Below, piece after piece: positions 2,738 to 19,971 of a stretch of DNA of 20,000 nt (position 1 is the first letter of the stretch; each line of letters starts with the position of its first letter). Origin of the DNA: an uncultured virus (IMG/VR IMGVR_UViG_3300020421_000008) (Duplodnaviria; Heunggongvirae; Uroviricota; Caudoviricetes); the IMG/VR virus record IMGVR_UViG_3300020421_000008, one strand, 5' to 3'. Under the pieces are notes generated by a model. That model saw nothing but the letters and a program-made list of their open reading frames with translations, searched no databases and was not told the origin of the DNA. The translations under genes and the position numbers were made by a program.

Positions 2738-2756
2738 CGGTGCGGTTGCCCTGCGG

Positions 2757-2778
2757 TAGGGATACCATAGGGATGCCA
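2757..2778 (+). repeat. tandem TAGGGAYRCCA 11-mers (boundary motif)
   Basis: TAGGGATACCA+TAGGGATGCCA. The same motif occurs at 2296, 3723, 12337, 12348, 16559, 16570 and 18992. Confidence 0.85.
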
Positions 2779-3036: not shown

Positions 3037-3795
3037 CCTTTTCGCGGGATTTTCTTGAAACCCTGGATCGGTCTTCCTCGATTTGATCAAAAGTTGTAGT
3101 TTTTGAAAGTTTTCAGCTCAGCTGCAGCTGGCCTGTCAAAAACCTTAGGTAACTTTCTACTCTTCGAAGAATCTGAAGAAAGTTGCAGAAAGGTGCAGTT
3201 TTCGAGAGCTTTCCTGGGGGCCGGAGCTCCCGTCTCCTGGTTGGCCCCGTAAAATGGTGAAAAGTTGTGGTTTTTTAAAGTTTTGCGCTGCTATTGCCGC
3301 TGAGGAAGTGGATCAGCATTCTTAGAAAATGCAAAAAACGCCAGCTTTTGCAAACATTTGGGATGGGCCCCGTGCTGAGTGGCCCGCGGCTTCCCGTAAA
3401 TGCGGCAAAAATCTGACGTTTTTGAAAGTTTTATCGACTTTTACTTTTAGAAGCGGGATCGAAGTAGTTCTCTTTCGAGAGAATCGGTCCACATTCTACG
3501 TTCGGGGACGTTGATGTCATCGAATTGTCGATTGAATCGACGCTTTCTTGAGTTTTCCCGTTGTTTGTCGATTGCTTTTCGTAAGTTTTTCATTTAGTTT
3601 CACCTCTTCCGTTTAACTCCAGTATCTAATGTATAACATCTAGAGATTCTTGTCTAGTAAATAGCCTGTGTCCTTTGACACGTTTGGTAGTTTTAACATG
3701 GCTGAAACATTGTGGCCTGCCGTAGGAACACCATTGAGGTGGAATAGAAGGTTAGGAAGCCCCGATAGAATATAAAGGTAGGTTAGTCCCGCTTA

Positions 3796-4076: not shown

Positions 4077-4395
4077 ACTGACAAAGTTGCACATTTCGGT
4101 TCCTTTTTGGTTAAAAGAGCTTTTAGTTGATGCTGCTCAAAAAGAAGAGATGAGTACTTCCCAGTACTGTGCTCACAAGTTAGAGGAGAGCGCTAGGGAC
4201 ACCATTGGCATCATTAGAAAGCCCCCCGTTGCTTCGATACCTACGGTGAGTGATGTGTTAAGAAGTTATGTCGAAGGGACCAGCAAGCTCATAGGTCCTT
4301 GTGGCGAACCTTTTCCGTGCGACTACGATCCTGATCAAGTTAAAGTACTTGGAGACTACGAGTTTTGTCATGCTTGTGACATCTGTGTTCACTGA
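4054..4395 (+). CDS. RHH-like protein with C-terminal Cys-rich Zn-binding domain
   Basis: LHISVPFWLKELL..AA..EEMSTSQY; C....PC...CHAC. Confidence 0.7.
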   Translation: MILDQKNKLTKLHISVPFWLKELLVDAAQKEEMSTSQYCAHKLEESARDTIGIIRKPPVASIPTVSDVLRSYVEGTSKLIGPCGEPFPCDYDPDQVKVLGDYEFCHACDICVH

Positions 4396-5408: not shown

Positions 5409-7043
5409 TTAACTCCTTTGACTTGGTTTAACTACGCCGGATAGTTTTTCTTCCCAGCGTTCCAAGATTCTAGGGCTAGGCTTTTGTCCCCTCTGCAAGC
5501 CTTTGAGATATTCAATGGCTCCTTCAGGTTCATACTCCATGTGTACATTGAACTTCTTTGCGTACAATGCACACTCACGCTCGTCGTAGGAACTTGCACC
5601 GGAAGGTCGGTAAACCATTCCGTCAGTTATCCATACAACTGGCGCTCCTATAGTTTGGCGTTTGCTAACAGCGTACTCTATCGCTGGCAAGTCGTTTCCG
5701 TTGCCATTGAAGAATCGTGGTAGCGAACCACCAAACACTTTACCTTTGTCAGCGAGGATAAAAGTGTTAAAGTCATCTGTATCCCAGCCACAAGAGTAAG
5801 CGATGACGGTACAACCGGGGGCTGCCATCATCATATCTTTTACCTGATCTTTTGATAAAGACATGGAGCCTGATACGTCAATCAGCACTACGCCTCCTTG
5901 AGCCTTTACCTTCTTATCAAAGATTCGTCTTTCAGGATCAGTCAGCAGTCTTTGTATCCTTCGTGGGTTTCTACCTACGTTTGATGCAACTCGCTTTTTA
6001 CCGATTGCTCCTTGTACGTTTAAGGTTAAAGGTAATCCAGTGTCCACTTTGACTGGTATCCAGTTTCCGAGTCCACCTTTGCGAGCAATTCTGCTGTTTA
6101 ATGCTTCTTTTGCTCGCTTTTGGATATCTTTCCGATCTATCATTTTAGCATCTTCTGAAAGTTCATCTTTCTTTGTGTCTTTGTCAAGACCTGCTTCATG
6201 ATCTACGGATATTTCTCCATCACCTTCTTGCCCACCGTCGGCTTCCAGTTCCTCTTGTCCTTCATCTGATTCATCTTCTTCGGATTCATCTGACGAGCTT
6301 TGGACTTGTTCTGGCATTTCCATTGGTGGTGCTGGTAAAGATGCAATACCTTCAATGAGCATTGCGAACTCTACCGTGTAAGACATTCCAGATATCCATT
6401 CAGGGTTTTGATCTGCTGATTCAGTAGAACCATAGATACCGAAAGCAGTTGAGTCGTCCGTTCTCTGAACGCCTGCGTAATGCTTTTTGATTTCCCTAAT
6501 CTGGTTTTTCTGGAACTTTACAAACTCTTTAGATATGACTCTTAGTTGATCTGCCCATGCTGGAGCCTCACGCCTCATACCAGTTAGTAGAGGACGAAGC
6601 CCACCAGTGTGAATGGAGGCCGCAACTGCATAGACTGATTCTGCCCATGAGTTGGTGGCTACCAATATTTCACCGTCATGCTTTTCTGATCCTGTAATCA
6701 TATCCTTCATGGGGAACCCTAAAGATTCCGCAATAAAGTTTACTCTTGCTTCTTCTGCTGCTCGGATTGCTCCCTCTGGAGTAACTTCGTTTATGTACGG
6801 AGTTAAGTCTTGGGGAGAAACCTTCACATGAATTTGCTCATGCCCTCTGATGCTTCTAGCAAGATTAGAGTCATCTAAAGGTACTCGCATGATACGACCT
6901 GAAACAGTAATAAAGGGTTCTCCTCTAACTGCTCTGGCACGTCCAACGTCCCAGCCACCAGTGTTACGGATATCTCTCCGTGTGAACACCTCTGGCATTG
7001 GTCGGTTTCTGTTTTCAATTTTTTCAATTATATGGTTTGTCAT
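5409..7043 (-). CDS. vWA-domain protein with N-terminal HEXXH metallopeptidase-like domain (CobT-like MoxR partner)
   Basis: GHEQIH and AAEEARVN; acidic linker; MIDAS DVSGSM and ITDG. Confidence 0.85.
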   Translation of the reverse strand: MTNHIIEKIENRNRPMPEVFTRRDIRNTGGWDVGRARAVRGEPFITVSGRIMRVPLDDSNLARSIRGHEQIHVKVSPQDLTPYINEVTPEGAIRAAEEARVNFIAESLGFPMKDMITGSEKHDGEILVATNSWAESVYAVAASIHTGGLRPLLTGMRREAPAWADQLRVISKEFVKFQKNQIREIKKHYAGVQRTDDSTAFGIYGSTESADQNPEWISGMSYTVEFAMLIEGIASLPAPPMEMPEQVQSSSDESEEDESDEGQEELEADGGQEGDGEISVDHEAGLDKDTKKDELSEDAKMIDRKDIQKRAKEALNSRIARKGGLGNWIPVKVDTGLPLTLNVQGAIGKKRVASNVGRNPRRIQRLLTDPERRIFDKKVKAQGGVVLIDVSGSMSLSKDQVKDMMMAAPGCTVIAYSCGWDTDDFNTFILADKGKVFGGSLPRFFNGNGNDLPAIEYAVSKRQTIGAPVVWITDGMVYRPSGASSYDERECALYAKKFNVHMEYEPEGAIEYLKGLQRGQKPSPRILERWEEKLSGVVKPSQRS

Positions 7044-7095
7044 TGTAATCCTCTCTACGGATTATTTAGTATCAAGCGACTTGCTTGATATAACA

Positions 7096-7129
7096 AATTT
7101 AGCAGACTTTGAGCTTTTTGTCAAGTCTT
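7096..7129 (-). promoter_or_regulatory. strong sigmaA promoter
   Basis: AAGAC-TTGACA-17-TAAATT, with TGC immediately before the -10 box. Confidence 0.8.
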
Positions 7130-7165
7130 TTATCTAATTTTTTGTGGTTGGTTTTTATAGACTGT

Positions 7166-7200
7166 GAGGGAGAGGGTAACCAACCAAACCCCTCTCCCTC
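7166..7200 (-). terminator. stem-loop after the AAA gene
   Basis: GAGGGAGAGGG / CCCTCTCCCTC inverted repeat. Confidence 0.7.
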
Positions 7201-7252
7201 TGTGCGATGGCTAGGCGAAAGAAATAAAACCTAACCACTTGGAGGCACGATC

Positions 7253-7972
7253 TTAGCCTTCTACAGATTGAAACTTATCAATGTTGATTGCTTCAATAAA
7301 TGCAGTGGCTCGTTCTCCTAAGATAAGTTTGGCTGCTTTTTCCTCACCCATCTGTTGAGCAAGTTTGCTCATGGATTGGAATAAGCGGAGCGACATACGC
7401 TCTGCGCCAGCGTCAGCCATACGATCAGCATAGCCTCTCCAGTGCATTGGCAATGTAGCCAGAGCATCTGGGTGAGGGCGATCTATTCGCAAGCGAACTG
7501 GGAACCTATCTATCAGTGCCTGTGGCAGTTCTTCAATGACTTCAACATTAGTTGTCATCACTACGGTATAACCCGGAGCCGGAGTTGTTTTTTCTCCAGT
7601 TACTGGGTGTTCCCATTCAGACGATCCGTCAGAATCAGTCATGTTTAGGAGCGTAGCGAATACGTCACCACCTGCCTTATCTATTTCGTCTACTACGAGT
7701 CGAGCTCCAGTACGACGAGCCTTGATCGCAACACCTTCAATCCATTGGAAGCCACCATCTGCTGATGGTAGGAACCCTCCAGTGACATCCATGTTCGTCA
7801 TGTCGTCAGTACAAGTAAGTCTGTGAGACTCTTGCCCTTCTCTCTTTTGAGTATGAAGTGCGGAGAAGGTCTTACCAGTTCCCGGAGGACCGTACAGAAT
7901 TACTCTGTCCACTCCTGCGTTAAGAATCTGTTTGTAAGTTTCCCAACAATTCTCTCTCTCTTGATTTTCCAT
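7253..7972 (-). CDS. MoxR/CbbQ/CobS-like AAA+ ATPase
   Basis: Walker A GPPGTGKT, Walker B LVVDEIDK, sensor MTTN, ALIDRF Arg finger. Confidence 0.92.
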   Translation of the reverse strand: MENQERENCWETYKQILNAGVDRVILYGPPGTGKTFSALHTQKREGQESHRLTCTDDMTNMDVTGGFLPSADGGFQWIEGVAIKARRTGARLVVDEIDKAGGDVFATLLNMTDSDGSSEWEHPVTGEKTTPAPGYTVVMTTNVEVIEELPQALIDRFPVRLRIDRPHPDALATLPMHWRGYADRMADAGAERMSLRLFQSMSKLAQQMGEEKAAKLILGERATAFIEAINIDKFQSVEG

Positions 7973-11871: not shown

Positions 11872-12312
11872 ATCCGGTAACAGGAGGTGGGGCGCTGCGG
11901 CTACCCCACCAAAGTTACAGGTAACATATCGGAACTATATTCGACCTTGCTGGTCTGGATTATATGGGAGCCTAGCGACCTGATTCAACCTCAAACGATT
12001 TGTATCCGGTATGTTACACACAATAGAATAAAAAACGGATACTGGAGTCACTACCAGTATTGAAGTAGAACCAAAAGGTTTCTATTAGCACCATAGTTAC
12101 TTAGAGTATGGGATGCTAAATATAGACTCCGAGTCGGTAAAGATACTATTTTGTAAGATGAGAGTGACGGCGTGAAAGCGTGCTGTTGATCTACTTCGTC
12201 GTTTGGCTTGAAGGCTGCTCGTGAGTACGAAAGCGCTTTCGTGGGTTCATCAGACCGCTTCAAGTCAGGCAAAGCCTCACCTAAAGTTATAAACACTAGG
12301 GTGGGGTTTCTT
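11872..12312 (+). ncRNA. candidate large structured ncRNA (about 440 nt), family not recognised
   Basis: Promoter upstream, no sense ORF, many nested stems (11921-33/12005-17; 12062-69/12190-97; GGCTTGAAG/CTTCAAGTC), terminal hairpin with U-rich tail. Confidence 0.7.
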
Positions 12313-12333
12313 CCTGGTTGCTGGTCTTGCCAA

Positions 12334-12445
12334 CCGTAGGGATACCATAGGGACACCATTGAGCTCATATAGCACTAAGGAAGTCCCGAAAGAAACTGGA
12401 CTATCTCACCCTTCTTTTGATTTTGACCAGATTTGACCAGACTTG
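12334..12445 (+). repeat. composite boundary element
   Basis: 2x TAGGGAYACCA, GTCCCG-AAAGAAA-CTGGAC (12383-12401), TTTGACCAGA x2. Confidence 0.75.
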
Positions 12446-12591
12446 GCCTGCTGCTGCTTTCGCTGCTGTTTGCTGGAGTTCAACAAAGCGCAGGGGAAGT
12501 CCTATCTTTTTTTTGTTTCGGTTTTGTCTCCGAAAATATATGTCTGGTTTTGGGTGAACAGTTTTGAGTCATGTTCAGGACTGTGGTGGAA

Positions 12592-12843
12592 TTAGAGGAC
12601 TGGGATTATCTGAAGTTCCTCTATGCTTGTGGCAAGAGAACCTCCGTCATTTCCTTCGTCATCTGACATGGGTATTATCCATGTTCCATCATCAAAAGTA
12701 ATTGCGATTGGTCGCTTGTACCAATAATTATCTTCTGCTTCTTTTGGAGAGAGATACTCAACACTCGTGATTGTCTTACCGACAAGCTCCTTGCTGATTC
12801 GCTCTATCCATTTTGTTTCAATGTCTTGCATTGTGTCGCTCAT
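12592..12843 (-). CDS. conserved phage hypothetical protein (DDEGNDGG motif)
   Basis: GGAGGT RBS; promoter TTGACA(12902-07)-17-TACCAT. Confidence 0.85.
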   Translation of the reverse strand: MSDTMQDIETKWIERISKELVGKTITSVEYLSPKEAEDNYWYKRPIAITFDDGTWIIPMSDDEGNDGGSLATSIEELQIIPVL

Positions 12844-12951
12844 AGTACCTCCATGAGTTATAGTTGTTTACGTCAGTAATGGTAGCAGGCCTGATTTACC
12901 TTGTCAAGTCATTATTCCAAAAATAATTATTTAATTTTATTGTGTTCGAGG

Positions 12952-12980
12952 TTGTCATTGTCACACCCATCTGGTAAATT
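12952..12980 (+). promoter_or_regulatory. promoter with TGTC element
   Basis: TTGTCA-T-TGTCAC-N10-TAAATT; AT-rich UP-like tract upstream. Confidence 0.6.
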
Positions 12981-13030
12981 GAATATACCGATGAGGAAGC
13001 AAATAAAATTTATTTGAAAAATCTTAGGTA

Positions 13031-13064
13031 AAGACTTGACAGAAAGAAAACGATCTGTTAAGTT
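13031..13064 (+). promoter_or_regulatory. strong sigmaA promoter
   Basis: AAGAC-TTGACA-17-TAAGTT. Confidence 0.75.
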
Positions 13065-13097
13065 GAAAACACACTAATAAGTCATGGAGGACTTAAA

Positions 13098-13481
13098 ATG
13101 AATACAACAGTAATTATTAACCAAACTAAAGTAGAGGAGTTAGCAGCCCAAAAAGTTGTTGAACTTCGTTCCGCTTTAGCAGATGCAAAAGATGCAGTTG
13201 AAGAAGCAGAAGCGCAATTCAAAGCGTTAGATGTTGAATCTGTAACTCTTGCAGACGGAACCAAAGTTGCAATCGTCACACAAAATAGACGAAGCATTGA
13301 CAATGAGGTTCTCAAAGATGTTCTTCCACAAGGACAACATCAAAGAGTAACCAAACGAGTCGGTGACATGAAACTCATTGACGGAGCAATCGAAGCAGGT
13401 TGGTTAGATGGAGACTTGGTAAACCAAGCAATCACCGTCAAAGAAGTACAATCGCTGAAAGTTACCCAACCAAAGCGATAA
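13098..13481 (+). CDS. hypothetical protein with N-terminal coiled coil; paralog of 19394-19774
   Basis: GGAGG RBS; about 74% aa identity to the paralog by manual alignment. Confidence 0.9.
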   Translation: MNTTVIINQTKVEELAAQKVVELRSALADAKDAVEEAEAQFKALDVESVTLADGTKVAIVTQNRRSIDNEVLKDVLPQGQHQRVTKRVGDMKLIDGAIEAGWLDGDLVNQAITVKEVQSLKVTQPKR

Positions 13482-13489
13482 GTTATTTG

Positions 13490-13528
13490 GGCTAGGGAGT
13501 TGCAATAGACTCCCTAGCCTGATACACT
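13490..13528 (+). promoter_or_regulatory. hairpin fused with a promoter (-35 in the loop)
   Basis: GGCTAGGGAGT-TGCAATAG-ACTCCCTAGCC; TTGCAA-17-TACACT. Confidence 0.75.
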
Positions 13529-13564
13529 CGTAATATGTTAAACAAACCAAAGTCAGGAGACTTT

Positions 13565-13726
13565 ATGAAAAACACAATAGAGGTAGAGGAAACTTTACCA
13601 GATGAAGAAATTGAAAGTATGTTAGCGGAGCTAAATGTTCCTAATGACATTCATTTCAGTGACGAGGTACCAGATTATCAAGGTATCCGAGACATGGCAG
13701 ATGATCTGCTAGAAAGTAGAGGCTAA
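13565..13726 (+). CDS. small acidic protein (alternative leaderless start at 13535)
   Basis: AGGAG RBS before 13565. Confidence 0.75.
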   Translation: MKNTIEVEETLPDEEIESMLAELNVPNDIHFSDEVPDYQGIRDMADDLLESRG

Positions 13727-13727
13727 T

Positions 13728-14363
13728 ATGCCGAACCATTGCGAAAACTACCTAGAGGTAGAAGGACCAGCGTCTGATGTAAGACGTTTCGAGGAAGCGA
13801 TCAGGGATCAGGTAACTGATGACGTTCGTATCGTAAACCTCATGCCCATGCCAGAAATACTTGAGGGTACTAAATCCCCAAGTCCAAAATCAGAGCAATT
13901 TGATGAAGATGGAAAGTATATGGAATGGGTGAACAATCCAACCAATGAAAATTGGAATATGGATAAGTACAATAAAGCAAAAGCGATTCATGCAGAAGAG
14001 TGGGCTGCTGGTATTGAGGCTAGAGAAACAACAGGTTTCAGTGACTGGTACTCGTGGGCAATCTCTGACGAGAATTGGGGAACCAAATGGGGAGACTATG
14101 AAACCCATCTGGACTCTTACTACGATGATGAACGTGGACAGATAGATGGTCGTTTTGAAACGGCATGGAGTCCATTAAGTAATTCATTCTGGGAGCATGT
14201 GTCTAAACAATTCCCTACCCTAAAAATTAGCGTATCTTTCCGAGAGGAAGGTATGTGCTTCGAGGGAGGGCAAGCGTACTTTGCCGGAGAGTGTCACTAC
14301 GATGAGACTAGCGAATTGTCTGCTCATCATAGTAGCGCTAGAGGAGCATTAGCGAATCTATAA
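13728..14363 (+). CDS. DUF1281/YubB ferredoxin-like-fold family protein
   Basis: MPNHCEN.L, WY.W...NWGTKW and FETAWSP motifs. Confidence 0.85.
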   Translation: MPNHCENYLEVEGPASDVRRFEEAIRDQVTDDVRIVNLMPMPEILEGTKSPSPKSEQFDEDGKYMEWVNNPTNENWNMDKYNKAKAIHAEEWAAGIEARETTGFSDWYSWAISDENWGTKWGDYETHLDSYYDDERGQIDGRFETAWSPLSNSFWEHVSKQFPTLKISVSFREEGMCFEGGQAYFAGECHYDETSELSAHHSSARGALANL

Positions 14364-14370
14364 TATCATG

Positions 14371-14408
14371 CCGGAGAGGTTGCAATGCCTCTCCGGTTTT
14401 GGTATCCT
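14371..14408 (+). terminator. terminator hairpin fused with a promoter (-35 in the loop)
   Basis: CCGGAGAGG-TTGCAATG-CCTCTCCGG-TTTT; TTGCAA-17-TATCCT. Confidence 0.8.
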
Positions 14409-14447
14409 TAAACTAACAACAAATCAGCCTAGACAAAAGGAGTCAAA

Positions 14448-14633
14448 ATGGCTAGAACTAAGAAAAAGCTAAAAATAGAATTAGAACCATATGACATACA
14501 CAAGTCAATACGGAAATTAGCGTATGAGTCCAAAGTGGCACACATGCAAGAAGGCCGTAGACAGCGTGCAGTCAAGTTTACTAATCGTAAAAAAGAAGCA
14601 AGTCGTAAGGCTTGTAGAAAGGGGAACTGGTAA
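14448..14633 (+). CDS. small highly basic protein
   Basis: AAGGAG RBS; TAATG coupling. Confidence 0.8.
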   Translation: MARTKKKLKIELEPYDIHKSIRKLAYESKVAHMQEGRRQRAVKFTNRKKEASRKACRKGNW

Positions 14634-14917
14634 TGAGTATTGAGTTTCAAGAACGAACAGATACCGAAGCACTACCATTTAGTGATCGTCTTTACCTAGT
14701 AATGGAATCCCTCAAGATGGTAGAAGAAGGTTTAGAAATCCTTTATCAAGAGGCTCTTGATGAAGGACATGATGACAATGAACTCCTAGAGGACTCGCTC
14801 ATGGAAATGAGAGAGACAGCCTTTATGACAGTTCTGCGGAGTCATACTAATGGAAGAACTGAAATCAGACAGATGGTTAAAGCAGTAGCAATAGAAGTAG
14901 GTGAGGACCTTGAATAA
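14633..14917 (+). CDS. acidic hypothetical protein
   Basis: Coupled to the upstream ORF. Confidence 0.8.
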   Translation: MSIEFQERTDTEALPFSDRLYLVMESLKMVEEGLEILYQEALDEGHDDNELLEDSLMEMRETAFMTVLRSHTNGRTEIRQMVKAVAIEVGEDLE

Positions 14918-15015
14918 AGATTGGGATACTATTTACTTCAGGAGACGCATAGGTGTCTCTATAATACTTGCCGTAGCAGTCTTTCTGTTTGCATTCATAG
15001 GAGGTAATCTCGTAC

Positions 15016-15546
15016 ATGGGTGCTAATAGAACTTTAGCGAGAGGAGACTTGCGGGTCGTCAATGGCGACTCGCTTGTTCTCGTTCTTGACATACACGAAG
15101 AAGATGGATACAAGTGGGCAGAAGTTATGCCTATCCACGACCAACTAGACATGGCTACAGCAGTAGACTTAGTTGTGTCTACAGAGTCTCCTTCTCTTAC
15201 CATTTTTGAGGGAAGTGAACTATTAGATCATCTGGTAGTACAGACTGATCTTTTAAGTACTTGTGATCTGGAGCATATCGGAGCATTAGTAGGAGAGTTT
15301 GGTGATCATGAATGTGACTGCCTAAACGAGCTCTGGAGTTCTAAAGAACGTAAACCAACAATTACTAGCGTCTACCACTACACTGGTGAACCTTTCAGTA
15401 ACAAAGGTTTAGAGGAAGCGAAGAAGGACCCACGCTGGTCATTCAAAGTAGATCAAGGTAAACACACTCAAGAGAGGCAAAGTAAGTCATTAACGATCTT
15501 ATTTGAGATGATGGATAACGGAGAACTACAGAACTTAACTCTGTAA
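15016..15546 (+). CDS. hypothetical protein
   Basis: AGGAGGT RBS; TATAAT at 14960. Confidence 0.8.
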   Translation: MGANRTLARGDLRVVNGDSLVLVLDIHEEDGYKWAEVMPIHDQLDMATAVDLVVSTESPSLTIFEGSELLDHLVVQTDLLSTCDLEHIGALVGEFGDHECDCLNELWSSKERKPTITSVYHYTGEPFSNKGLEEAKKDPRWSFKVDQGKHTQERQSKSLTILFEMMDNGELQNLTL

Positions 15547-15637
15547 AATCTTACCTAAAGACTTGCAATTTACTGTAGACGGTGTATAATGGAGTTATCG
15601 CAAGGAAGTACCGAGCGAAGTTAGGAATAGACAAAAG

Positions 15638-15856
15638 ATGTTAAAAGAACTAACAAAAGATACAGTACGAGTAGAACTTGAGGGCCAACTGCAAATGTTT
15701 ACCCAAGATGAACTACTCGGTAACAGAATAGCCAAAGAAGGTTGTACACGATGTTCTTGTGGCTCTAAGTATTGGGAAAATGATCACTGCCATAGTTGCG
15801 GAAAAATGGTCATAGTTGTTCGAGAGTTTCAATACGGAGAACAATTCCCCATCTAA
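15638..15856 (+). CDS. small Zn-ribbon protein (C.RC.CG...C.SCG)
   Basis: Promoter TTGCAA-16-TATAAT at 15563-15590; Cys pattern. Confidence 0.8.
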   Translation: MLKELTKDTVRVELEGQLQMFTQDELLGNRIAKEGCTRCSCGSKYWENDHCHSCGKMVIVVREFQYGEQFPI

Positions 15857-15867
15857 ATCCCAGCAGC

Positions 15868-15897
15868 GAACTCCGGCCCGAAAGGGTCGGGGTTTCT
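15868..15897 (+). terminator. intrinsic terminator with GAAA loop
   Basis: ACTCCGGCCC-GAAA-GGGTCGGGGT-TTC. Confidence 0.75.
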
Positions 15898-15916
15898 GCA
15901 TGTCCTTTTAGAGTGA

Positions 15917-16012
15917 TGTTAAGCCAACCTAACAAAAAGAGTTAAGCATACCTAACCGGGTCCCGATATAGTCGGGGCTATTAGACCTCAGGTAAACTTT
16001 GACCTGACCTCC
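15917..16012 (+). repeat. two GTTAAG-N4-CCTAAC boxes, a GTCCCG-N7-CGGGGC palindrome and GACCT repeats
   Basis: Boxes at 15918-33 and 15941-56; palindrome at 15960-78. Confidence 0.75.
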
Positions 16013-16217
16013 TTCATCTTTTGCTCCTTTTAGCTCTGCCTGAGCTGAGCAAAAACTGTCATTTTTGATTAGTTTTGCCAAATTTTCTACTGGCCTGCCC
16101 GCTGGTCTCCCGTTTTTTGTCAAAAACTTTCAAAAACGACAGATTTTCGCTGCTATTTTGCCGCTATTTTGCCGCTACTGGGAATAAAAAATTATTTAAG
16201 AAATTGTTGGACAAAGG

Positions 16218-16246
16218 TTGCTTTTGTCTCACCCTTATGTTAAGAT
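16218..16246 (+). promoter_or_regulatory. promoter with TGTC element driving an ncRNA
   Basis: TTGCTT-T-TGTCTC-N10-TAAGAT. Confidence 0.65.
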
Positions 16247-16251
16247 GGGCG

Positions 16252-16526
16252 TAGCCCGAAAGGGTGGCAGGGGGAAACCCCGAATTGACAACTGAATATC
16301 CATTCGGTTGGGTTGCAACTAAGGGCCCACCGAACTTCGTGGAAAGAGGTTCTTTTTACCAAAAAACCTACCAGAAGTGGAAACGGAAACCATCAAAAGA
16401 ACCGAAAGGTACGGTGCGGACTCCTCAAAAACCTTGCAAGGTGGAGGGCGAACCTAAATGGCAAACAAGATACCCTTCGCAAGTAGAGAGTGAAGAACCG
16501 ATCCACCGAAGTTCGGTGGGCTTTTC
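16252..16526 (+). ncRNA. candidate structured ncRNA (about 275 nt) rich in GNRA tetraloops
   Basis: GCCC-GAAA-GGGT, GGG-GAAA-CCC, ACC-GAAA-GGT; perfect 15-bp long-range stem 16325-39/16507-21 followed by TTTT. Confidence 0.7.
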
Positions 16527-16555
16527 GCCTGGTTGGGGTTGGGGCGAGCTGCATA

Positions 16556-16675
16556 GCGTAGGTACGCCATAGGGACACCATAGCAGTCTAATAGAAGGAG
16601 AAGAGTCCCGATAGATACGGGACTACTCGACCTTCGACCTGACCTGACCTGCTGCATGACCTGACCTGCTGGTCA
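16556..16675 (+). repeat. composite boundary element
   Basis: TAGGTACGCCA-TAGGGACACCA, AATAGAAGGA, GTCCCG-ATAGATA-CGGGAC (16605-23), (GACCT)n. Confidence 0.85.
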
Positions 16676-16705
16676 GAAATTGACAAAATCTCGCATACCA
16701 GGCAA

Positions 16706-16734
16706 AATCCACCGAGTGTTTAGTTCGGTGGATT
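16706..16734 (-). terminator. terminator of the 16743-17111 gene
   Basis: Minus strand: AATCCACCGA...TCGGTGGATT-TT. Confidence 0.75.
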
Positions 16735-16742
16735 CCCTTCGG

Positions 16743-17111
16743 TTAGCCAAGTGGTGGGATGTTCATTACGGTTCCGTAATCAACATAGTCGTTACCCCGA
16801 AATAAATCTAAAGACAATTTCGACAGTGTAACGAGTGCACTTTGTCGGTTGTTCCGTATTCCTGATTCTACAGGATCGGTACCTTCGACAGTAGTTCCTT
16901 CGATTACTTCCCATACGTCCTCTCCGTACTTCGTGATACGGTGCATTTGTTTAACTACGTATCGCATTTCAGAAGAGAGCATACCCTCTCTGACAGCGAC
17001 GTAGCCAAACCACTCGTCACGAGCTTTCGAGAACGAATAAGCGTAACCTAGAACAGGCACTTGTCCGTCTTGACTAATATCTATACAAACACTATCTGTT
17101 CGTGTAAACAT
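16743..17111 (-). CDS. hypothetical protein
   Basis: GAAAGGA RBS; TGTC promoter at 17219-17240. Confidence 0.8.
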   Translation of the reverse strand: MFTRTDSVCIDISQDGQVPVLGYAYSFSKARDEWFGYVAVREGMLSSEMRYVVKQMHRITKYGEDVWEVIEGTTVEGTDPVESGIRNNRQSALVTLSKLSLDLFRGNDYVDYGTVMNIPPLG

Positions 17112-17218
17112 TTCTATTCCTTTCCCACTCGAACCTACAGGCTTCTACTGTCAGGGGCTTTCCACTCATTCGAGAATTACGGCTAGTATGTAATGTCGGT
17201 ACTTTACCAACAAATAGA

Positions 17219-17254
17219 ACGATACCACGACTATGAGACAAAACCACCCGGTTT
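17219..17254 (-). promoter_or_regulatory. TGTC-element promoter lacking a canonical -35
   Basis: AAACCGGGTGGTTT-TGTCTC-N10-TATCGT; the upstream block is identical to 19266-19286. Confidence 0.65.
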
Positions 17255-17361
17255 TTGCAAAGAAATTAAAATTCTTTTTTTTTGCATTTGATGTTGCAAT
17301 GCTGGTCAAACGGTGGTATCCTGGAAGTACTGAAATAATTAACTACCGAAAGGAATTCAGT

Positions 17362-17511
17362 ATGCCAGTAAAATGTGATAATTGTGGAATCTTCTGCTCG
17401 TCACTCGATGCGATAGCAACCGAAGAAGGATTAGTCTTCTGTGGAAGCTTTCGAGGAAACGGATGCGACAAGAAGTACGACAACGGCGAATTCGAAATCG
17501 AAATCGTCTAA
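17362..17511 (+). CDS. 49-aa Zn-binding protein (CDNCG...FCGS...GC); start revised
   Basis: AAAGGA RBS; promoter TTGCAA-17-TATCCT at 17294-17322. Confidence 0.8.
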   Translation: MPVKCDNCGIFCSSLDAIATEEGLVFCGSFRGNGCDKKYDNGEFEIEIV

Positions 17512-17609
17512 TTGTCGAAGTAAGTAGACCACCCCGTAGACCAACGGGCCTCGCCACCTACGGGTGGCCTAGAGTGAGGGGGAGAAATCCTGAGTGGTCT
17601 TACTTATTT

Positions 17610-17705
17610 AGCCCCGTATAAATCGGGGCTTTACGGGGTGACCAGACCTGACCAGACCTGACCTGTGTTTGATCTGACCTGCACTCGACCTGACCTGCTG
17701 CTGCA
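17610..17705 (+). repeat. palindrome plus GACC(T/A) tandem repeats
   Basis: GCCCCG-TATAAAT-CGGGGC (17611-29), GACCAGACCT x2, GACCT repeats. Confidence 0.8.
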
Positions 17706-17845
17706 TTTTCAGTGGCTGCTATTTTCAACGGCTGCTAAAAATATTAATTAATTTTTATTTGGGGTTGCAATTATGAAGTGGTCATGGTAATCTGGATATA
17801 TCAGGCCTTCAAAGTGGAAGCTTGTAGATTCAGATCGGAGATAAA

Positions 17846-17980
17846 ATGACTGAATGGACCAGAAATGAAGACGGAGAGTGGGTCGAAGCAGAACCACTCA
17901 TGAGTAAGGAAGACCTTATGGAGATGATGTGGGATTGGGACGAAGATCTCCGCCACATGCATGATCTCTGTCACGGATAA
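17846..17980 (+). CDS. 44-aa acidic, Trp-rich protein (MTEWTRNEDGEWVEAE...)
   Basis: Translated by hand. GGAG RBS; promoter TTGCAA-17-TAATCT (17765); terminator at 17992-18023. Confidence 0.75.
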   Translation: MTEWTRNEDGEWVEAEPLMSKEDLMEMMWDWDEDLRHMHDLCHG

Positions 17981-18029
17981 CGTGTAGGTTCATCCCTCAG
18001 CACGAAAGTGTTGGGGGATTTTTCCTGGT

Positions 18030-18079
18030 TGGTCAGGTCAGGTCAGGTCGAGGTCAGGATGCCCCGACTATATCGGGAC
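18030..18079 (-). repeat. palindrome plus (GACCT)n in reverse orientation
   Basis: GGTCAGGTCAGGTCAGGTC followed by GCCCCG-ACTATAT-CGGGAC, the exact reverse complement of 15960-78. Confidence 0.8.
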
Positions 18080-18151
18080 TTCACGGGTAGTCGATTTTTA
18101 TTTATGGCCACCCAGGGAAATACCCCCGACCAGAAGGCCGGAGGCATCCGA

Positions 18152-18487
18152 TTAAGCAGCGATTCGTCGCAGGCCACGGGCTTCCGAAGCGTACTCGCTA
18201 AGGGTTTTCGTAGCCGTAAACCATGCATCACGTTCGAGGAACATATTTGCAGGAAGTGAATCAAATTCACTTTGAGAGACATAACCTAGTTCTGGAAACC
18301 CCAGACCAAGATCACATAGGCCGAAGAAGATTCCATCTTCGTCCATCTCTGTAAGCAACCATGTCGCCCCTGCCCCTGCCGTGAATATTTTCACTACAGG
18401 TTTGTGGTCGATCCCTCCTTCTCCTTCGAGATTGGCTTCGTGGTTTGCCAGAAGCCGTTTACGTTGATCAGCAGTGATTAGTTTCAT
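18152..18487 (-). CDS. DUF2958-family protein
   Basis: PVVKIFT..AGATWLLTE, FGLCDLGLGFPELGYVS and ERD.WF motifs. Confidence 0.9.
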   Translation of the reverse strand: MKLITADQRKRLLANHEANLEGEGGIDHKPVVKIFTAGAGATWLLTEMDEDGIFFGLCDLGLGFPELGYVSQSEFDSLPANMFLERDAWFTATKTLSEYASEARGLRRIAA

Positions 18488-18576
18488 GCTTTACCTTTCT
18501 ACTTGGGAGCAGTCCTTCGAGGCTTTCACTCGAACCAGTCCTTACGGCGGACTACTCGCTTTTCTTTATACATTCC

Positions 18577-18605
18577 ATGCTACAGGGCCCGTGAGACAAT
18601 TGCAA
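18577..18605 (-). promoter_or_regulatory. promoter with TGTC element
   Basis: TTGCAA-T-TGTCTC-N10-TAGCAT. Confidence 0.7.
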
Positions 18606-18709
18606 GTATTTAGCGTAAAAATAATTATTTAATTTTTTAGCTTTTCGGTGTTGCAATGTAGTTGAATCTTTGATACGGTGGTACTTGTCGTTAAAACGAA
18701 AGGTAAACA

Positions 18710-18847
18710 ATGACATTAGCACTTTACATAATAGGAGCGCTCTTATACGCTACGCTCGCCAAAACGATGCACAGGCATCATGAGCGTGAAGTAAGAGAGA
18801 AGACGCTAAGGGAGCACCCCAAACTAGCGAAACATCTCTCCTCATAA
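18710..18847 (+). CDS. 45-aa membrane-anchored peptide (MTLALYIIGALLYATLAKTMHRHHERE...)
   Basis: Translated by hand. GAAAGGT RBS; promoter TTGCAA-17-TACGGT (18651). Confidence 0.7.
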   Translation: MTLALYIIGALLYATLAKTMHRHHEREVREKTLREHPKLAKHLSS

Positions 18848-18909
18848 AATCGGAGGATCGCACTACTGATTAGTAACCTAGTTTTGCTAACTACTGATGC
18901 GATGTCCGA

Positions 18910-18951
18910 AAGCCCTAGCAGGTTTCACTCATTTTCCTGCTAGGGCTTCTT
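18910..18951 (+). terminator. intrinsic terminator
   Basis: AGCCCTAGCAGG / CCTGCTAGGGCT-TCTT. Confidence 0.75.
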
Positions 18952-18988
18952 CCTGGGCGGGTACTGGTCAGCGCTGCTGCAGGTCATG

Positions 18989-19070
18989 CGGTAGGGACAC
19001 CATAGAGGCTTAATAGAAGGAAGAGAGTCCCGTAATAATCGGGACATACTGACCTCGATTTTGACCTGCA
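18989..19070 (+). repeat. composite boundary element
   Basis: TAGGGACACCA, AATAGAAGGA, GTCCCG-TAATAAT-CGGGAC (19027-45), GACCT. Confidence 0.85.
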
Positions 19071-19131
19071 CGCTGCTTTCACAAAAACAACCTTTTGTCA
19101 AGTTTTTTTTATTTTTTTTTATTTTTTTATT

Positions 19132-19218
19132 TGTTAGCTCTGCTTAACATCGTTTGTTAGGTGCACTTAACATAATCTGTTCGCAAGCGTGAACATGGCC
19201 TGTTAGGCGAACTTAACA
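19132..19218. promoter_or_regulatory. array of four 18-bp palindromic boxes with a 23-bp period
   Basis: TGTTAGCTCTGCTTAACA, TGTTAGGTGCACTTAACA, TGTTCGCAAGCGTGAACA, TGTTAGGCGAACTTAACA. Confidence 0.75.
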
Positions 19219-19265
19219 AATATGTCATTTATGTTACGAAAAAAATTATTTGAAATTTTTTTGAA

Positions 19266-19301
19266 AAACCGGGTGGTTTTGTCTCACAACGATGGTAACC
19301 T
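19266..19301 (+). promoter_or_regulatory. TGTC-element promoter lacking a canonical -35
   Basis: GTGGTT-T-TGTCTC-N10-TAACCT. Confidence 0.65.
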
Positions 19302-19393
19302 GGATATATCAAAGAAAACAGGAGTCTAGCCATTAGGTGAAGAGTCAGGGTGAGAGTCCCAGATAGGCTTCTGAATTAGAGAAAGGGTCCGAC

Positions 19394-19774
19394 ATGGATA
19401 CTTTATTAGTGAATGATCGCAAGATCAGCGAACTAACCGCACAGCGAGTCGTGGAAGCACGGAGCGCTCTTGCAGAAGCAAGGGAAGCGGTTGAGGAAGC
19501 AGAACTTGCTTTCCGAGCGTTAGAAGTTGAAAGCGTAACCCTCGCAGACGGAACGAAAGTTGCAATAGTGAATCAAAACAGACGATCTATTGACAACGAT
19601 GTTCTGAAAGCGATTCTTCCGCAAGGGCAACACCAACGTGTTACCAAGCGAGTCGGTGAGATGAAACTTATTGACGGTGCGGTTGAAGCAGGGTGGCTAG
19701 ATAGCGATCTTGTTGGTAAAGCGATCAACATCAAAGAAGTTTCTTCCGTCAAAGTTACACAACCAAGACGGTAA
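19394..19774 (+). CDS. hypothetical protein; paralog of 13098-13481
   Basis: GAAAGGG RBS; shared VESVTLADGTKVAIV and LPQGQHQRVTKRVG blocks. Confidence 0.9.
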   Translation: MDTLLVNDRKISELTAQRVVEARSALAEAREAVEEAELAFRALEVESVTLADGTKVAIVNQNRRSIDNDVLKAILPQGQHQRVTKRVGEMKLIDGAVEAGWLDSDLVGKAINIKEVSSVKVTQPRR

Positions 19775-19796
19775 AACTTCTTAACCGAAGGAGGCT

Positions 19797-19824
19797 TCCA
19801 CCGCATTATGAGTGCGGTGGATTT
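19797..19824 (+). terminator. intrinsic terminator
   Basis: TCCACCGCA-TTATGAG-TGCGGTGGA-TTT. Confidence 0.75.
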
Positions 19825-19874
19825 CGCCTGGTATACGAGCTTTTGAGTGGCCGTTCGAGTTTCGAGGTCTTTAA

Positions 19875-19971
19875 GCCCCGATATATACGGGACTTTACGG
19901 GTGGGCGGGCAAGCTGACCGTGAGCTGACCGTAGAGTTTTCGACCTCAGAGGCCCCCGATATAATCGGGAC
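19875..19971. repeat. two CCCCG-N7-CGGGAC palindromes
   Basis: 19875-93 (spacer ATATATA) and 19953-71 (spacer ATATAAT); AGCTGACCGT x2 between them. Confidence 0.8.

Follow-up and report, generated by a model that had tools for sequence, protein, structure and literature searches.

Tyrosine recombinases act on partner sites whose overlap regions need to match, and their known arm sites are about twice as long as the 6- to 7-bp arms of the repeat described here. PeSL-mediated shuffling of T4-type phages is reported in PMC2839356 and PMC4122927, and the gain, loss, and movement of cassettes at the locus analyzed here resemble this type of shuffling, i.e., homologous exchange between scaffold repeats. 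Nick sites are found in T5, phiKMV-like, and tf phages; the phiKMV consensus, CGACxxxxxCCTA/CTCCGG, is given in PMC3517423 as cut after CCTA, which is also how the core described below ends. Our locus, a stretch of 20,000 nucleotides (the window), is the reverse complement of positions 70503-50505 of the virus record G001 (128,360 bp, 87% complete), with 99.875% identity (24 mismatches and 1 gap) and no difference within the palindromes. It is best explained as part of a hyperplastic early region in the genome (128 kb) of an uncultured marine myovirus, for which WhiB, an L5 gp82-like protein, and a copy of the element in Streptomyces hint at an actinobacterial host.

The eight 19-bp palindromes GYCCCG-N7-CGGGRC (P19) reported in the preliminary description were all recovered at their positions, six of them perfect and two with one arm mismatch, when 0.04 were expected and none of 200 dinucleotide shuffles reached eight. 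They are listed below, without strand, together with an operator copy beside one of them:

12383..12401, P19 palindrome GTCCCGAAAGAAACTGGAC with one arm mismatch (G001 58103)
15917-15934, copy of the TGTTARG-N4-CYTAACA operator, between the terminator of the 72-aa gene and palindrome 15960
15960..15978, P19 palindrome, 60 nt beyond the 72-aa gene terminator
16605..16623, P19 palindrome in a full composite copy
17611..17629, P19 palindrome with six (GACCT) units after it
18061..18079, P19 palindrome where the units of the 44-aa gene and the DUF2958 gene converge
19027..19045, P19 palindrome in a full composite copy
19875..19893, first of two P19 palindromes that lie 78 nt apart
19953..19971, P19 palindrome with one arm mismatch; TACGGT core 38 nt away on the window minus strand

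A scan of the whole G001 record gave 19 sites, all within a single gene-poor early region of 15 kb (42,872-58,121) and outside credible genes, while the pattern read backwards had no match in this genome. Mechanical coding density in the site region (42.9-58.1 kb) was 0.58-0.71, versus mostly >0.9 elsewhere. The 10 mechanical open reading frames (ORFs) that overlap sites scored poorly as coding (codon log-odds of -0.35 to +0.13 versus 0.34 +/- 0.13 for genes elsewhere that are 100 aa or longer) and none had a family match, in agreement with the original claim that the repeat never falls inside a credible gene. That the sites lie just past the 3' ends of transcription units also holds for the window as read from its letters, with the qualification that separate canonical terminators already stand 33-100 nt before the palindromes. 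The degenerate half-sites at 2816, 3759-3769, and 3786 are present too, each adjoining a TAGGGAYRCCA copy. Among the first 11 sites, distances alternate between 88-285 and 722-889 bp.

The geometry is rigid. The spacer is strictly 7 nt (CCCG-N7-CGGG, n = 18; N3 to N6 and N9, n = 0; N8, n = 1), 94% A/T, and comes in 14 distinct sequences among the 19 sites. Symmetry extends from the arms, only 6-7 bp long, into the flanks, with A before 15/19 sites and T after 13/19, so that the site reads (A)GYCCCG-N7-CGGGRC(T). Variation at arm position 2 is independent of that at position 18 (T-A 8, T-G 7, C-A 3, and C-G 1), with ca. 10 Watson-Crick pairs expected under independence. At positional homologues in the 90% identical relative L147, the arms are constant while flanks and spacers differ.

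The order TAGGGAYRCCA, AATAGAAGGA, palindrome, (GACCT)n, GCTGC was found twice, at 16559-16667 and at 18992-19075, with a partial version at 12337-12455. The first account stands as an observation in its sites, positions, and composite order. Its description of self-contained cassettes split by a repeated composite element was likewise supported as the layout of the region: the sites punctuate expression cassettes of ca. 0.7-0.9 kb with a common scaffold and small ORFs that are mutually unrelated except for two paralogue pairs. Each cassette runs from a palindrome through (GACCT)n, TGTTARG-N4-CYTAACA operators, and an A/T-rich UP tract with a sigma-70-type promoter to a small ORF (mostly an orphan), a terminator with TTCCTGG at its end, short repeats, and the next palindrome. 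The features of this scaffold in the window are as follows:

13098..15546, plus strand, early operon between palindromes 12383 and 15960 (genes of 127 aa, 63 aa, Api92-like 211 aa, 61 aa, 94 aa, and 176 aa)
16503..16533, plus strand, canonical terminator hairpin with T-run and CCTGG (TTYSCCTGG motif), 70 nt before the palindrome
16629..16667, plus strand, (GACCT)n run with GCTGC, marking the promoter-side flank of the cassette
16743..17111, minus strand, ORFan of 122 aa (coding score 0.29), its cassette flanked by palindromes 16605 and 17611
17640..17700, plus strand, (GACCT)n run, then GCTGCTGC
17992..18029, plus strand, canonical terminator of the 44-aa gene, GAAA-loop hairpin, TTTTTCCTGG
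18031..18058, minus strand, (GACCT)n run, seen as AGGTC repeats on the plus strand
18152..18487, minus strand, DUF2958 gene (E 6.9e-31), sole gene of the cassette that palindromes 18061 and 19027 enclose
18912..18957, plus strand, terminator hairpin with TTCTTCCTGG, end of the 45-aa gene unit
19131..19217, no strand, TGTTARG-N4-CYTAACA, an 18-bp palindrome, in three copies ahead of the 126-aa gene promoter
19394..19774, plus strand, 126-aa gene cassette between palindromes 19027 and 19875

The 126-aa gene is a paralogue (75% identical) of the 127-aa gene at 13098-13481, and the operon that starts with the latter contains internal hairpins with a TTGCAAT loop, a PeSL feature.

Half of this boundary element is in fact a promoter-like core on the opposite strand, which the preliminary description had missed. 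On that strand, the TAGGGAYRCCA / AATAGAAGGA half takes the form TCTAWT-N8-TATGGT-GTCCCT-A. In the window, all on the minus strand, it appears as:

12337..12358, two tandem 11-nt core units, TGGTGTCCCTATGGTATCCCTA (promoter-like -10, discriminator, and +1)
16559..16580, tandem core units TGGTGTCCCTA and TGGCGTACCTA; TATGGT 41 nt after the first base of the palindrome
16590..16599, AATAGAAGGA (TCCTTCTATT when read on the minus strand), TCTAWT box found family-wide, 8 nt before TATGGT
18992..19002, core unit TGGTGTCCCTA; TATGGT 41 nt after the first base of the palindrome
19012..19021, second copy of the TCTAWT box

The core is kept across the whole phage family, where 142 distinct copies give YC[TA]ATGGTGTCCCTA[SS]G with CTTCTAA 8 nt upstream. 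In all seven tRNA-holding loci among eight scanned, tRNA-Ile starts at the base after ...CCTA. The only copy in the genome of Streptomyces ipomoeae follows GTCCCG-N6-CGGGGC by 23 nt and consists of two tandem units, the last A of which opens the ATG start codon of a DUF1697 gene whose Pfam match begins at residue 1. In the composite copies, TATGGT starts 41 nt after the first base of the palindrome, which places the latter at about -53 to -35 relative to the core. A TAYGGT core lies at +38 to +41 from the palindrome in 4/19 sites (5/19 counting AATGGT); for the other 14, no fixed distance to any promoter was found, and an operator role at that promoter is inapplicable to them. Core copies also keep to one strand per genome regardless of local gene direction (158 versus 2 in 25 loci; exact copies 6/6 on plus in G001 and 4/4 on minus in a second genome, G002), and two in G001 are antisense within real genes, which is odd for a simple promoter. 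Several have another sigma-70-type promoter or a terminator hairpin 13-22 nt downstream.

From these patterns, we favor the second option of the preliminary description, an array of protein-loading sites. (A)GYCCCG-N7-CGGGRC(T) would be the recognition site of a putative dimeric sequence-specific factor, marking cassette borders and perhaps acting as an insulator or roadblock. In the composite copies, it may serve as an operator centered near -44 of the second conserved core on the window minus strand, if the core is read as TCTAWT, 8 nt, TATGGT (-10), GTCCCT, and A (+1). We hold this reading, a fixed-geometry operator or boundary site within a full cassette scaffold, tentatively, at a little short of an even chance. 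A serious rival, although on balance we judge it unlikely, is that the palindrome works as a folded RNA hairpin, i.e., a secondary bidirectional stop, an insulator, or a stem-loop that protects ends behind the main terminators; the purging of single stem mutations would then be the sole reason for its constant sequence. The sites stand between units of either orientation, 33-100 nt beyond canonical terminators, which suits this reading, as do the GC-rich stems with free A/T-rich loops, the stable core hairpin (mean of -8.1 kcal/mol on either strand), and pairing of positions 2/18 in 16/19 sites (G001 plus strand, G-U allowed); PeSL stem-loops are also repeated within one genome, according to PMC2839356. 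Moreover, in high-GC relatives the core is preceded at 46-48 nt by another 19-bp palindrome, GCGGG-N9-CCCGC (13/21 matches), and this fold-back, kept at an equal offset with other arms, fits a hairpin equally well. However, only 4/19 sites passed a lax hairpin-plus-T-tail scan, pairing beyond the hairpin core was significant in only three of the 19, a flank-swap control gave equal mean energy, and no Rfam family matched. Paired states are not in excess at the sole variable stem position, loop length is invariant where A/T-rich loops should tolerate indels, and the orientation of the element in composite copies is independent of transcription. The strand bias of the core invites another explanation, which we regard as improbable: that the composite of palindrome and one-strand core ending in ...CCCTA is a strand-specific DNA-processing signal, for example a programmed nick site, modeled on those of the phages cited above, that would render cassette borders recombinogenic. 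Known nick motifs are also one-stranded (PMC3517423), and copies of the core persist within antisense coding sequence across relatives of 42-62% GC. Yet a transcription start is the better match for the tRNA +1 and for the leaderless gene in Streptomyces, and it is not obvious what a nick would do at the single copy on the Streptomyces chromosome. Searches of G001 for HUH, relaxase, and Y1 enzymes had no match, and 14/19 palindromes lack the core.

Two further readings invoke a recombinase or a transposase. As first proposed, the palindromes would be core sites of an integron- or shufflon-like cassette exchange by a tyrosine or serine recombinase, which now appears very unlikely; the alternative, that they are selfish extragenic repeats of the REP/BIME kind which a Y1 (RAYT-type) transposase has spread without any function for the phage, is more doubtful still. 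Six-frame searches of the 87% complete G001 record for tyrosine or serine recombinases (PF00589 and PF00239), Y1 transposases, and relaxases gave none, PF00589 had no match in G002 and G003, and no such recombinase, transposase, or relaxase family (PHROG, Pfam) was present among 161 (146 + 15) scanned proteins. Selfish repeats would explain short, GC-rich, imperfect palindromes that are extragenic, just past gene ends, and often paired 78-285 bp apart, but not their restriction to one 15-kb region instead of all intergenic DNA, the fixed place of every site in an ordered scaffold, the fixed spacer length, or arms kept in L147 where flanks have diverged. Cassette exchange by a recombinase would account for inverted arms about a fixed 7-nt A/T-rich spacer and for 0.7- to 0.9-kb cassettes with one site per side, and relatives and natural variants do differ by whole cassettes. 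Of five large indels between G001 and L147, the largest (2.4 kb versus 0.6 kb) has palindromes at both ends, whereas the other four have none at theirs. Arms of about half the known length, different spacers at neighboring sites, and the five sites at a fixed distance from the core also speak against a recombinase. Among the best-supported joints listed for assembled public contigs aligned at a likeness of at least 85%, many of them on 21- to 30-nt anchors, the interpretable ones fell in other scaffold repeats and not at the 7-nt spacer; contigs of other runs connect L018 13943 to 18183, 7890 to 2108, 4204 to 3224, and 4656 to 870, all within scaffold repeats. Two weak 21-nt joints in run X7 touch a palindrome, and one contig of this run seems to connect 42.6 kb with 46.1 kb by way of a palindrome (21-nt anchors only).

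The swaps are better explained by ordinary repeat recombination than by a dedicated integron-like system. The palindrome would not be the crossover site, and cassettes would be gained, lost, or moved by homologous recombination between any of the scaffold repeats, an exchange that the UvsX-like recombinase and the pair of Erf-like annealing protein and exonuclease encoded by the phage could drive. Gene "C" (G001 43460-43768) occurs in three different contexts.

Reverse-complemented, the window matches a near-identical 128-kb virus record (G001) over positions 70503-50505, with 99.875% identity, 24 mismatches, and one gap. Mechanical calling of G001 (128,360 bp, rated "linear" and 87% complete) gave 194 ORFs of at least 45 aa. 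The 146 compared with PHROGs (the 150 longest minus four crossing piece borders) describe a myovirus, with tail sheath, baseplate, major head protein, portal, and TerL, together with DNA polymerase I, a primase-helicase, several DNA methyltransferases, WhiB, and a sigma factor. Its recombination genes, according to the same scan, are a UvsX-like recombinase and an Erf-like annealing protein with an exonuclease, and Pfam also recognized sigma regions 1.2, 2, and 4 and a mycobacteriophage L5 gp82-like protein. The best match of TerL among 50,697 GenBank phage records was 45% identical; therefore, the phage has no cultured relative among them and is unrelated to T4. Neither megablast (for near-identical genomes) nor tblastn with the DUF932 protein retrieved any GenBank phage. 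Near-identical DNA was present in marine and aquatic metagenome runs from nine studies (2014 to 2025), with depth, holes, and RNA-run shares (0.00 to 0.05) that are uninformative on expression.

In the preliminary description, eight copies of a 19-bp palindrome (GYCCCG-N7-CGGGRC) were reported in the window, and all eight were found in place with at most one mismatch, while shuffled sequences are expected to hold 0.04 and none of 200 reached eight. The scan of the whole contig that it had proposed gave 19 sites in G001, all between 42,872 and 58,121, and the pattern read backwards, used as a control, had zero matches in the same genome. This 15-kb stretch sits in the sole gene-poor part of G001, where mechanical coding density is 0.58 to 0.71 (40 to 56 kb) versus mostly >0.9 elsewhere. 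The sites were also said to avoid credible genes, and this holds: the ten mechanical ORFs that overlap them belong to no family and have codon scores of -0.35 to +0.13, compared with 0.34 +/- 0.13 for genes elsewhere. Likewise, we recovered the half-sites (window 2816, 3759-3769, and 3786) and, in the window sequence, the reported order of TAGGGAYRCCA, AATAGAAGGA, the palindrome, (GACCT)n, and GCTGC.

The geometry is strict. A search for CCCG-Nx-CGGG returned 18 sites with a spacer of 7 nt and one with 8 nt, and none with 3 to 6 or 9 nt. A and T make up 94% of the spacer bases, and the 19 sites have 14 distinct 7-nt spacers (11 with reverse complements merged). An A precedes 15 of the 19 sites and a T follows 13, so that the symmetry covers 21 bp. 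The lineage that bears the palindrome is represented by four genomes (G001 and the low-GC relatives L146, L147, and L149), and the sites of L147 that correspond by position retain the arms but have different spacers and flanks. No other IMG/VR contig matched the palindrome (GTCCCGANTATATCGGGAC), and the half-site-plus-core pattern gave two matches there, both by chance and within coding DNA. Matches in six high-GC loci (L150, L151, L163, L172, L175, and L180) may also be due to chance. As a separate observation, three loci of 58 to 62% GC (L150, L151, and L154) carry a counterpart with different arms, GCGGG-N9-CCCGC, and a conserved loop, TCAGCATCT. A tRNA arm or array as the source of the 6+7+6 layout was discarded; ARAGORN predicted no tRNA in the window, and Rfam returned nothing at the gathering threshold or at E values up to 1.

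The G001 region is a string of cassettes with a recurring order that starts with the palindrome, followed by a run of GACCT pentamers with GCTGC and the 18-bp palindrome TGTTARG-N4-CYTAACA, present once to six times. Then come an A/T-rich tract, a promoter (TTGACA/TTGCAA-N17-TAnnnT), a 5' leader, a small ORF, and a 3' region. Last come a canonical terminator with TTYCCTGG at its end, then a small hairpin, followed by one or two CTACGGTCAAG units and, before the next palindrome, ca. 45 nt. Cassettes were found in either orientation, and over the first eleven sites short distances (88 to 285 bp) alternate with long ones (722 to 889 bp). Their ORFs are mutually unrelated except for two paralogue pairs, and for this reason we rejected an origin of the repeats by tandem duplication of one gene module. 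Few belong to a family, namely DUF2958, an Api92-like protein, and, just beyond the cluster, DUF932. Terminator-like sites were more numerous than in shuffles (33 versus 16.8 +/- 4.0), while a generic promoter scan stayed at chance level (38 sites versus 34.4 +/- 5.5), so that the case for the promoters comes from reading the sequence and from their repeated occurrence among the cassettes.

Of the 30 copies of the 18-bp palindrome counted in G001, 27 lie between 40 and 59 kb; ten of these form a tandem array with a 23-bp period outside the window (G001 40,894-41,137). In the window it was seen at 15917-15934 and 19131-19217, and it also forms pairs upstream of cassette promoters. The set looks like an early-promoter operator or an iteron- or centromere-like array. 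Two unrelated cassette genes have a 5'-leader element in common, AGGTGAAGAGTC-GGGT-AGAGTCCCAGA (window 19335-19375 and G001 47430-47480). Two structured stretches of ca. 300 nt (window 16250-16560 and 12064-12330) are weakly coding, with codon scores of 0.08 and 0.04, had no match in Rfam, and are flanked by a sigma-70-type promoter (one strand) and a core unit (opposite strand); a sense/antisense RNA pair is a possible reading.

In phages, host-takeover and anti-defence genes show their fastest turnover in the early hyperplastic regions, and only T4-type phages have provided a detailed picture of how this turnover is organized. There, according to two reports, PeSLs (promoter-early stem-loops) frame orphan genes with a terminator stem-loop and a strong sigma-70-type promoter, and exchange proceeds by homologous recombination between the repeated regulatory pieces (Arbiol et al. 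2010, PMC2839356; Comeau et al. 2014, PMC4122927). The likeness is as follows: a lytic myovirus has a hyperplastic region crowded with small orphan genes, each flanked by a repeated composite of terminator stem-loop and early promoter, and relatives differ by entire cassettes, with exchange points in the repeated motifs (contigs at ≥85% likeness) as in homologous recombination between repeats. The likeness extends to terminator hairpins with a TTGCAAT loop that hold the -35 of the next promoter in the loop and its -10 in the tail, found within an operon at about window 13490-13530 and 14370-14405; many relatives have the same hairpin, with TTGACA as the loop-borne -35, downstream of the core. 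Unlike PeSLs, the scaffold of repeated pieces is multipart and far larger (300 to 400 nt), with an extra 19-bp palindrome at both cassette ends, pentamer runs, 18-bp operator-like arrays, and a second, one-strand core. The system is PeSL-like in its workings with a richer scaffold; in this uncultured marine family the scaffold is far more elaborate and standardized, adding boundary palindromes of fixed form, arrays of operators, and another promoter-like core.

The preliminary description had taken the palindromes as possible recombination sites of an integron- or shufflon-like system. What stands of this proposal is the general layout, gene-sized cassettes between imperfect palindromes in an array that varies between relatives, as with attC/IntI and sfx/Rci. 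The enzyme and the overlap were not found: the window was said to hold no recombinase, and the contig search that followed found none in six frames of G001 (87% complete), where tyrosine recombinases (PF00589) gave zero matches with positive controls in 14 of 14 genomes, and serine recombinases (PF00239) zero with 12 of 14. PF00589 was equally without matches in the related records G002 (69% complete) and G003, and no recombinase of this kind appeared among the 146 ORFs compared with PHROGs or 15 further proteins compared with Pfam; nor did the six-frame search of G001 (87% complete) yield a relaxase. Tyrosine recombinases need matching overlap regions, and here the arms span 6 to 7 bp and neighbouring sites seldom have a spacer in common (14 spacers for 19 sites), and partner sites generally lack a common crossover sequence. 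Moreover, attC sites measure 57 to 141 bp, compared with 19 bp here, and integron cassettes are generally promoterless, while each cassette here has its own promoter and terminator. Most indel ends also lack a site. With neither the recombinase (in the 87% of G001 available) nor the shared overlap found, we do not count this as a system of the integron or shufflon kind.

It had also been proposed to test whether breakpoints between relatives fall at the palindromes. In the alignment of G001 with L147, the DUF932 proteins of which are 90% identical, this was the case for one of five large indels. The largest, with palindromes on both sides, comprises 2.4 kb and four units in G001 versus 0.6 kb in L147; the arms are kept, spacers and flanks differ, and the sequence between is no clean excision product. 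The ends of the other four indels carry no palindrome:
G001/L147, a gene within the Api92 operon.
G001/L147, a 1.3-kb insertion at 57.5 kb.
G001/L147, a 109-nt repeat expansion.
G001 59.1-59.9 kb, an 870-bp block.

Cassette differences were read from G001 against L147, L146, and L149, and natural variants in at least four public studies have differing cassette sets. The gene at G001 43460-43768, for instance, appears in a different context in each of G001, L147, and L149, and a paralogue at 59.1 kb is 74% identical to it. Contigs from four other runs (at ≥85% likeness) provided joints. Among the best-supported ones listed, one joins L018 13943 to 18183 with 26 other letters between; a 4.2-kb block is missing, and both its ends lie beside a core unit. 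Others listed are 7890 to 2108, within TACGGTCA units; 4204 to 3224, within the terminator-CCTGG repeat; and 4656 to 870, within the TTTGTGAAA/TTTCACAAA palindrome. All four are located in scaffold repeats, and two joints of a single X7 contig, with anchors of 21 nt, touch the 19-bp palindrome; the interpretable joints listed sit in other repeats. These indels and joints mean that cassette turnover is real and employs many different repeats, which is the PeSL picture. At the smallest scale, the GACC/GACCT run next to the palindrome at 12383 (window 12436-12446) holds 4 of the 24 positions at which the window differs from G001, and the only indel lies in a T-run (window 19111); simple repeats are the fastest-changing part.

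The core, TCTAWT-N8-TATGGTGTCCCTA, may outweigh the palindrome in importance. Its unit TGGTGTCCCTA, the reverse complement of the TAGGGACACCA first noticed, has 142 distinct copies in the loci of the family, and the extended form reads YC[TA]A-TGGTGTCCCTA-[SS]G, preceded 8 nt upstream by CTTCTAA, which is weaker. These loci (39, from metagenomes) were collected by aligning the DUF932 protein (63 to 100% identity), and the core is kept over relatives from 42% to 63% GC. Copies of note are as follows:
Window 2757-2778, 3724-3734, 4194-4208, and 2296-2310, minus strand, core copies on one strand only (G001 50.0-68.2 kb); the last two are antisense within real genes (113-aa and 229-aa ORFs).
L146 8386-8473 and L147 13380-13467, tRNA-Ile(UAU) next to the core; likewise in L149, L156, L161, L163, and L167.
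L190 1960-2024, Streptomyces ipomoeae composite, GTCCCG-N6-CGGGGC, 23 nt, and two tandem core units.
L026-L144, IMG/VR stretches sharing a 14-nt word.

In all seven loci that hold the tRNA (eight scanned), tRNA-Ile(UAU) starts at the base directly after the ...CCTA of the core; the window and G001 have lost it at the homologous place (about window 3640-3723). A search for two tandem units in one genome per prokaryote species gave a single place, in the chromosome of S. ipomoeae, where the final A of the units doubles as the first base of the ATG of a DUF1697 gene; the product of this gene matches the Pfam model from residue 1 onward. The composite is the sole copy in that genome, among ordinary chromosomal genes. 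In actinobacteria, leaderless mRNAs and -10-only promoters are common. The arrangement in S. ipomoeae suggests that the promoter is leaderless and that there is a link to actinobacteria. With the last A of the core as +1, TATGGT occupies -12 to -7 as a TAnnnT hexamer and TCTAWT about -26 to -21, and GTCCCT would be the discriminator. Hexamer placement, the abutting tRNA, and the Streptomyces gene together suggest that the core marks a transcription start. The CTACGGTCAAG units in the region's left half share both the TAYGGT form and the habit of repeating in 11-bp tandem. Elsewhere, the composite pattern was seen once in a MAG of Acidimicrobiales and once in a contig that binning assigned to Bacteroidota, and an actinobacterial host is only a hint.

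Other features do not fit a plain promoter. In the 25 loci with three or more copies, 158 core copies lie on one strand and 2 on the other, regardless of local gene direction, and exact copies are all on one strand in G001 (6/6) and all on the other in G002 (4/4). Both antisense-in-gene copies are kept in relatives from 42% to 62% GC, and many copies have a sigma-70-type promoter or a terminator hairpin 13 to 22 nt downstream. The hairpin with TCTAAC and TGGTGT has what we take to be a resemblance to boxB-boxA-boxC (nut/rrn-like), a reading that we dropped because the strand of the element is independent of transcription. We also dropped a phage-encoded RNA polymerase that reads the core; the five large orphan proteins lack any Pfam match. 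A literature search for the core as a word returned unrelated primer matches only. In the IMG/VR stretches with the 14-nt word, the 11-nt unit forms two or three tandem copies in 56 of 119 (32 to 39% GC), 50 of them with an abutting inverted copy, and in the two contigs annotated (L036 and L049) it is upstream of a small-terminase-like gene; these contigs are an unrelated phage group with the same word. Should the core be a class of promoter, it would offer a way into assigning the host (Actinobacteria) and into a strand-wide programme of small or antisense RNAs; should it be a DNA-processing site, it would tie nicking to modular evolution.

For the palindrome itself, the best reading is a site for a putative dimeric DNA-binding factor, which we consider plausible, if short of probable. 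Fixed spacing, arms kept as spacers and flanks drift, and the position next to the core argue for it: in the composite copies TATGGT begins 41 nt after the first base of the palindrome, which therefore falls at -53 to -35 in 4 or 5 of the 19 copies. Of the protein-loading array proposed earlier as an alternative, the fixed N7 and the arms kept at L147 homologues fit such sites, and binding would be by this putative factor. Genes nearby encode WhiB and a protein with a weak match to NikA-like RHH proteins (24.5 bits against a cutoff of 27). For the other 14 palindromes, a border, insulator, or roadblock role is something we only infer. A folded RNA hairpin, which we regard as rather unlikely, would agree with the folding energy (-8.1 kcal/mol on either strand), with the placement behind unit ends, and with the GCGGG-N9-CCCGC counterpart 46 to 48 nt upstream of the same core in the high-GC loci (13/21 matches). 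Against this, the palindromes are for the most part not GC-rich hairpins running directly into a T-run as intrinsic terminators are, since a T-tail follows only 4 of the 19 sites even in a lax scan and canonical terminators are separate, upstream of the palindromes. The loop length is invariant, the strand of the composite ignores the direction of transcription, and the one variable stem position lacks any excess of pairing or covariation (T-A 8, C-G 1, T-G 7, and C-A 3). Pairing beyond the core stem equals that of a swapped-flank control, and an extended hairpin was rejected on the same grounds (significant at 3 of 19 sites, with the same mean energy after swapping). A family-wide hairpin upstream of the core was rejected as well, with perfect stems of at least 5 in 66 of 142 copies versus 172 of 426 control windows and fold z values near zero; only lineage-specific palindromes stand out there.

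The strand exclusivity, a property of the core and not of the palindrome, keeps alive a rival in which the composite is a programmed single-strand break site of the T5, phiKMV-like, and tf type. One-strand-only motifs mark the nick sites of these phages, and the phiKMV consensus likewise breaks after CCTA (PMC3517423). As described there, those motifs and our core are alike in being asymmetric, confined to one strand, and ended by CCTA at a putative break or start; the core differs in being clustered in ca. 18 kb rather than genome-wide, and any nick at it is putative. The tRNA and leaderless-gene contexts speak against nicking, as they indicate a transcription start. A REP/BIME element would come with a Y1 (HUH) transposase and be scattered over extragenic DNA, but PF01797 had zero matches in G001 (87% complete) and all 19 sites occupy one 15-kb stretch. 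We consider very improbable a broader scheme in which the cassettes between palindromes are true units of exchange: palindrome and one-strand ...GTCCCTA core would be recognized by a phage or host enzyme of unfamiliar sequence, a nickase or hairpin-specific nuclease and not a classical recombinase, which would open cassette borders for the homologous recombination machinery of the phage, as a dedicated cassette-shuffling device for anti-host genes partly common to other marine phage families with the 11-nt unit.

The palindrome-plus-promoter layout recalls actinophage operator arrays. In the Streptomyces phage phiC31, conserved inverted repeats lie beside near-identical early promoters and terminators, much like the arrangement here. 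Stoperators of Cluster A mycobacteriophages similarly occur as many copies of a short site in intergenic gaps across the early region, but they are asymmetric and bound by the monomeric immunity repressor of temperate phages (PMC9283540). Here, PHROGs and six-frame search of G001 (87% complete) revealed neither a repressor nor an integrase or lysogeny module, 4 or 5 of the 19 palindromes adjoin a core, and binding is putative.

Outside the cassettes, a noncoding stretch downstream of a core copy (about window 2640-2756, minus strand; ...CTCAGACCAAGGATA...CTCCAACGGATG...) is kept across relatives of very different GC, as in L146 9300-9400 and its homologues, and may be a small RNA gene. Searches of IMG/VR for further relatives gave nothing with the DUF932 and 544-aa proteins as anchors, two contigs with the helicase, both ending within the helicase gene, and one unrelated contig (55% GC) with the Api92-like protein. 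The 544-aa protein is paired with a MoxR-like AAA ATPase of 239 aa (window 5409-7972, minus strand), and the pair is syntenic in all relatives examined; Atlas placed the larger protein near VWA/CobT-type proteins, and it looks like the VWA/CobT-type partner of the MoxR-like ATPase.
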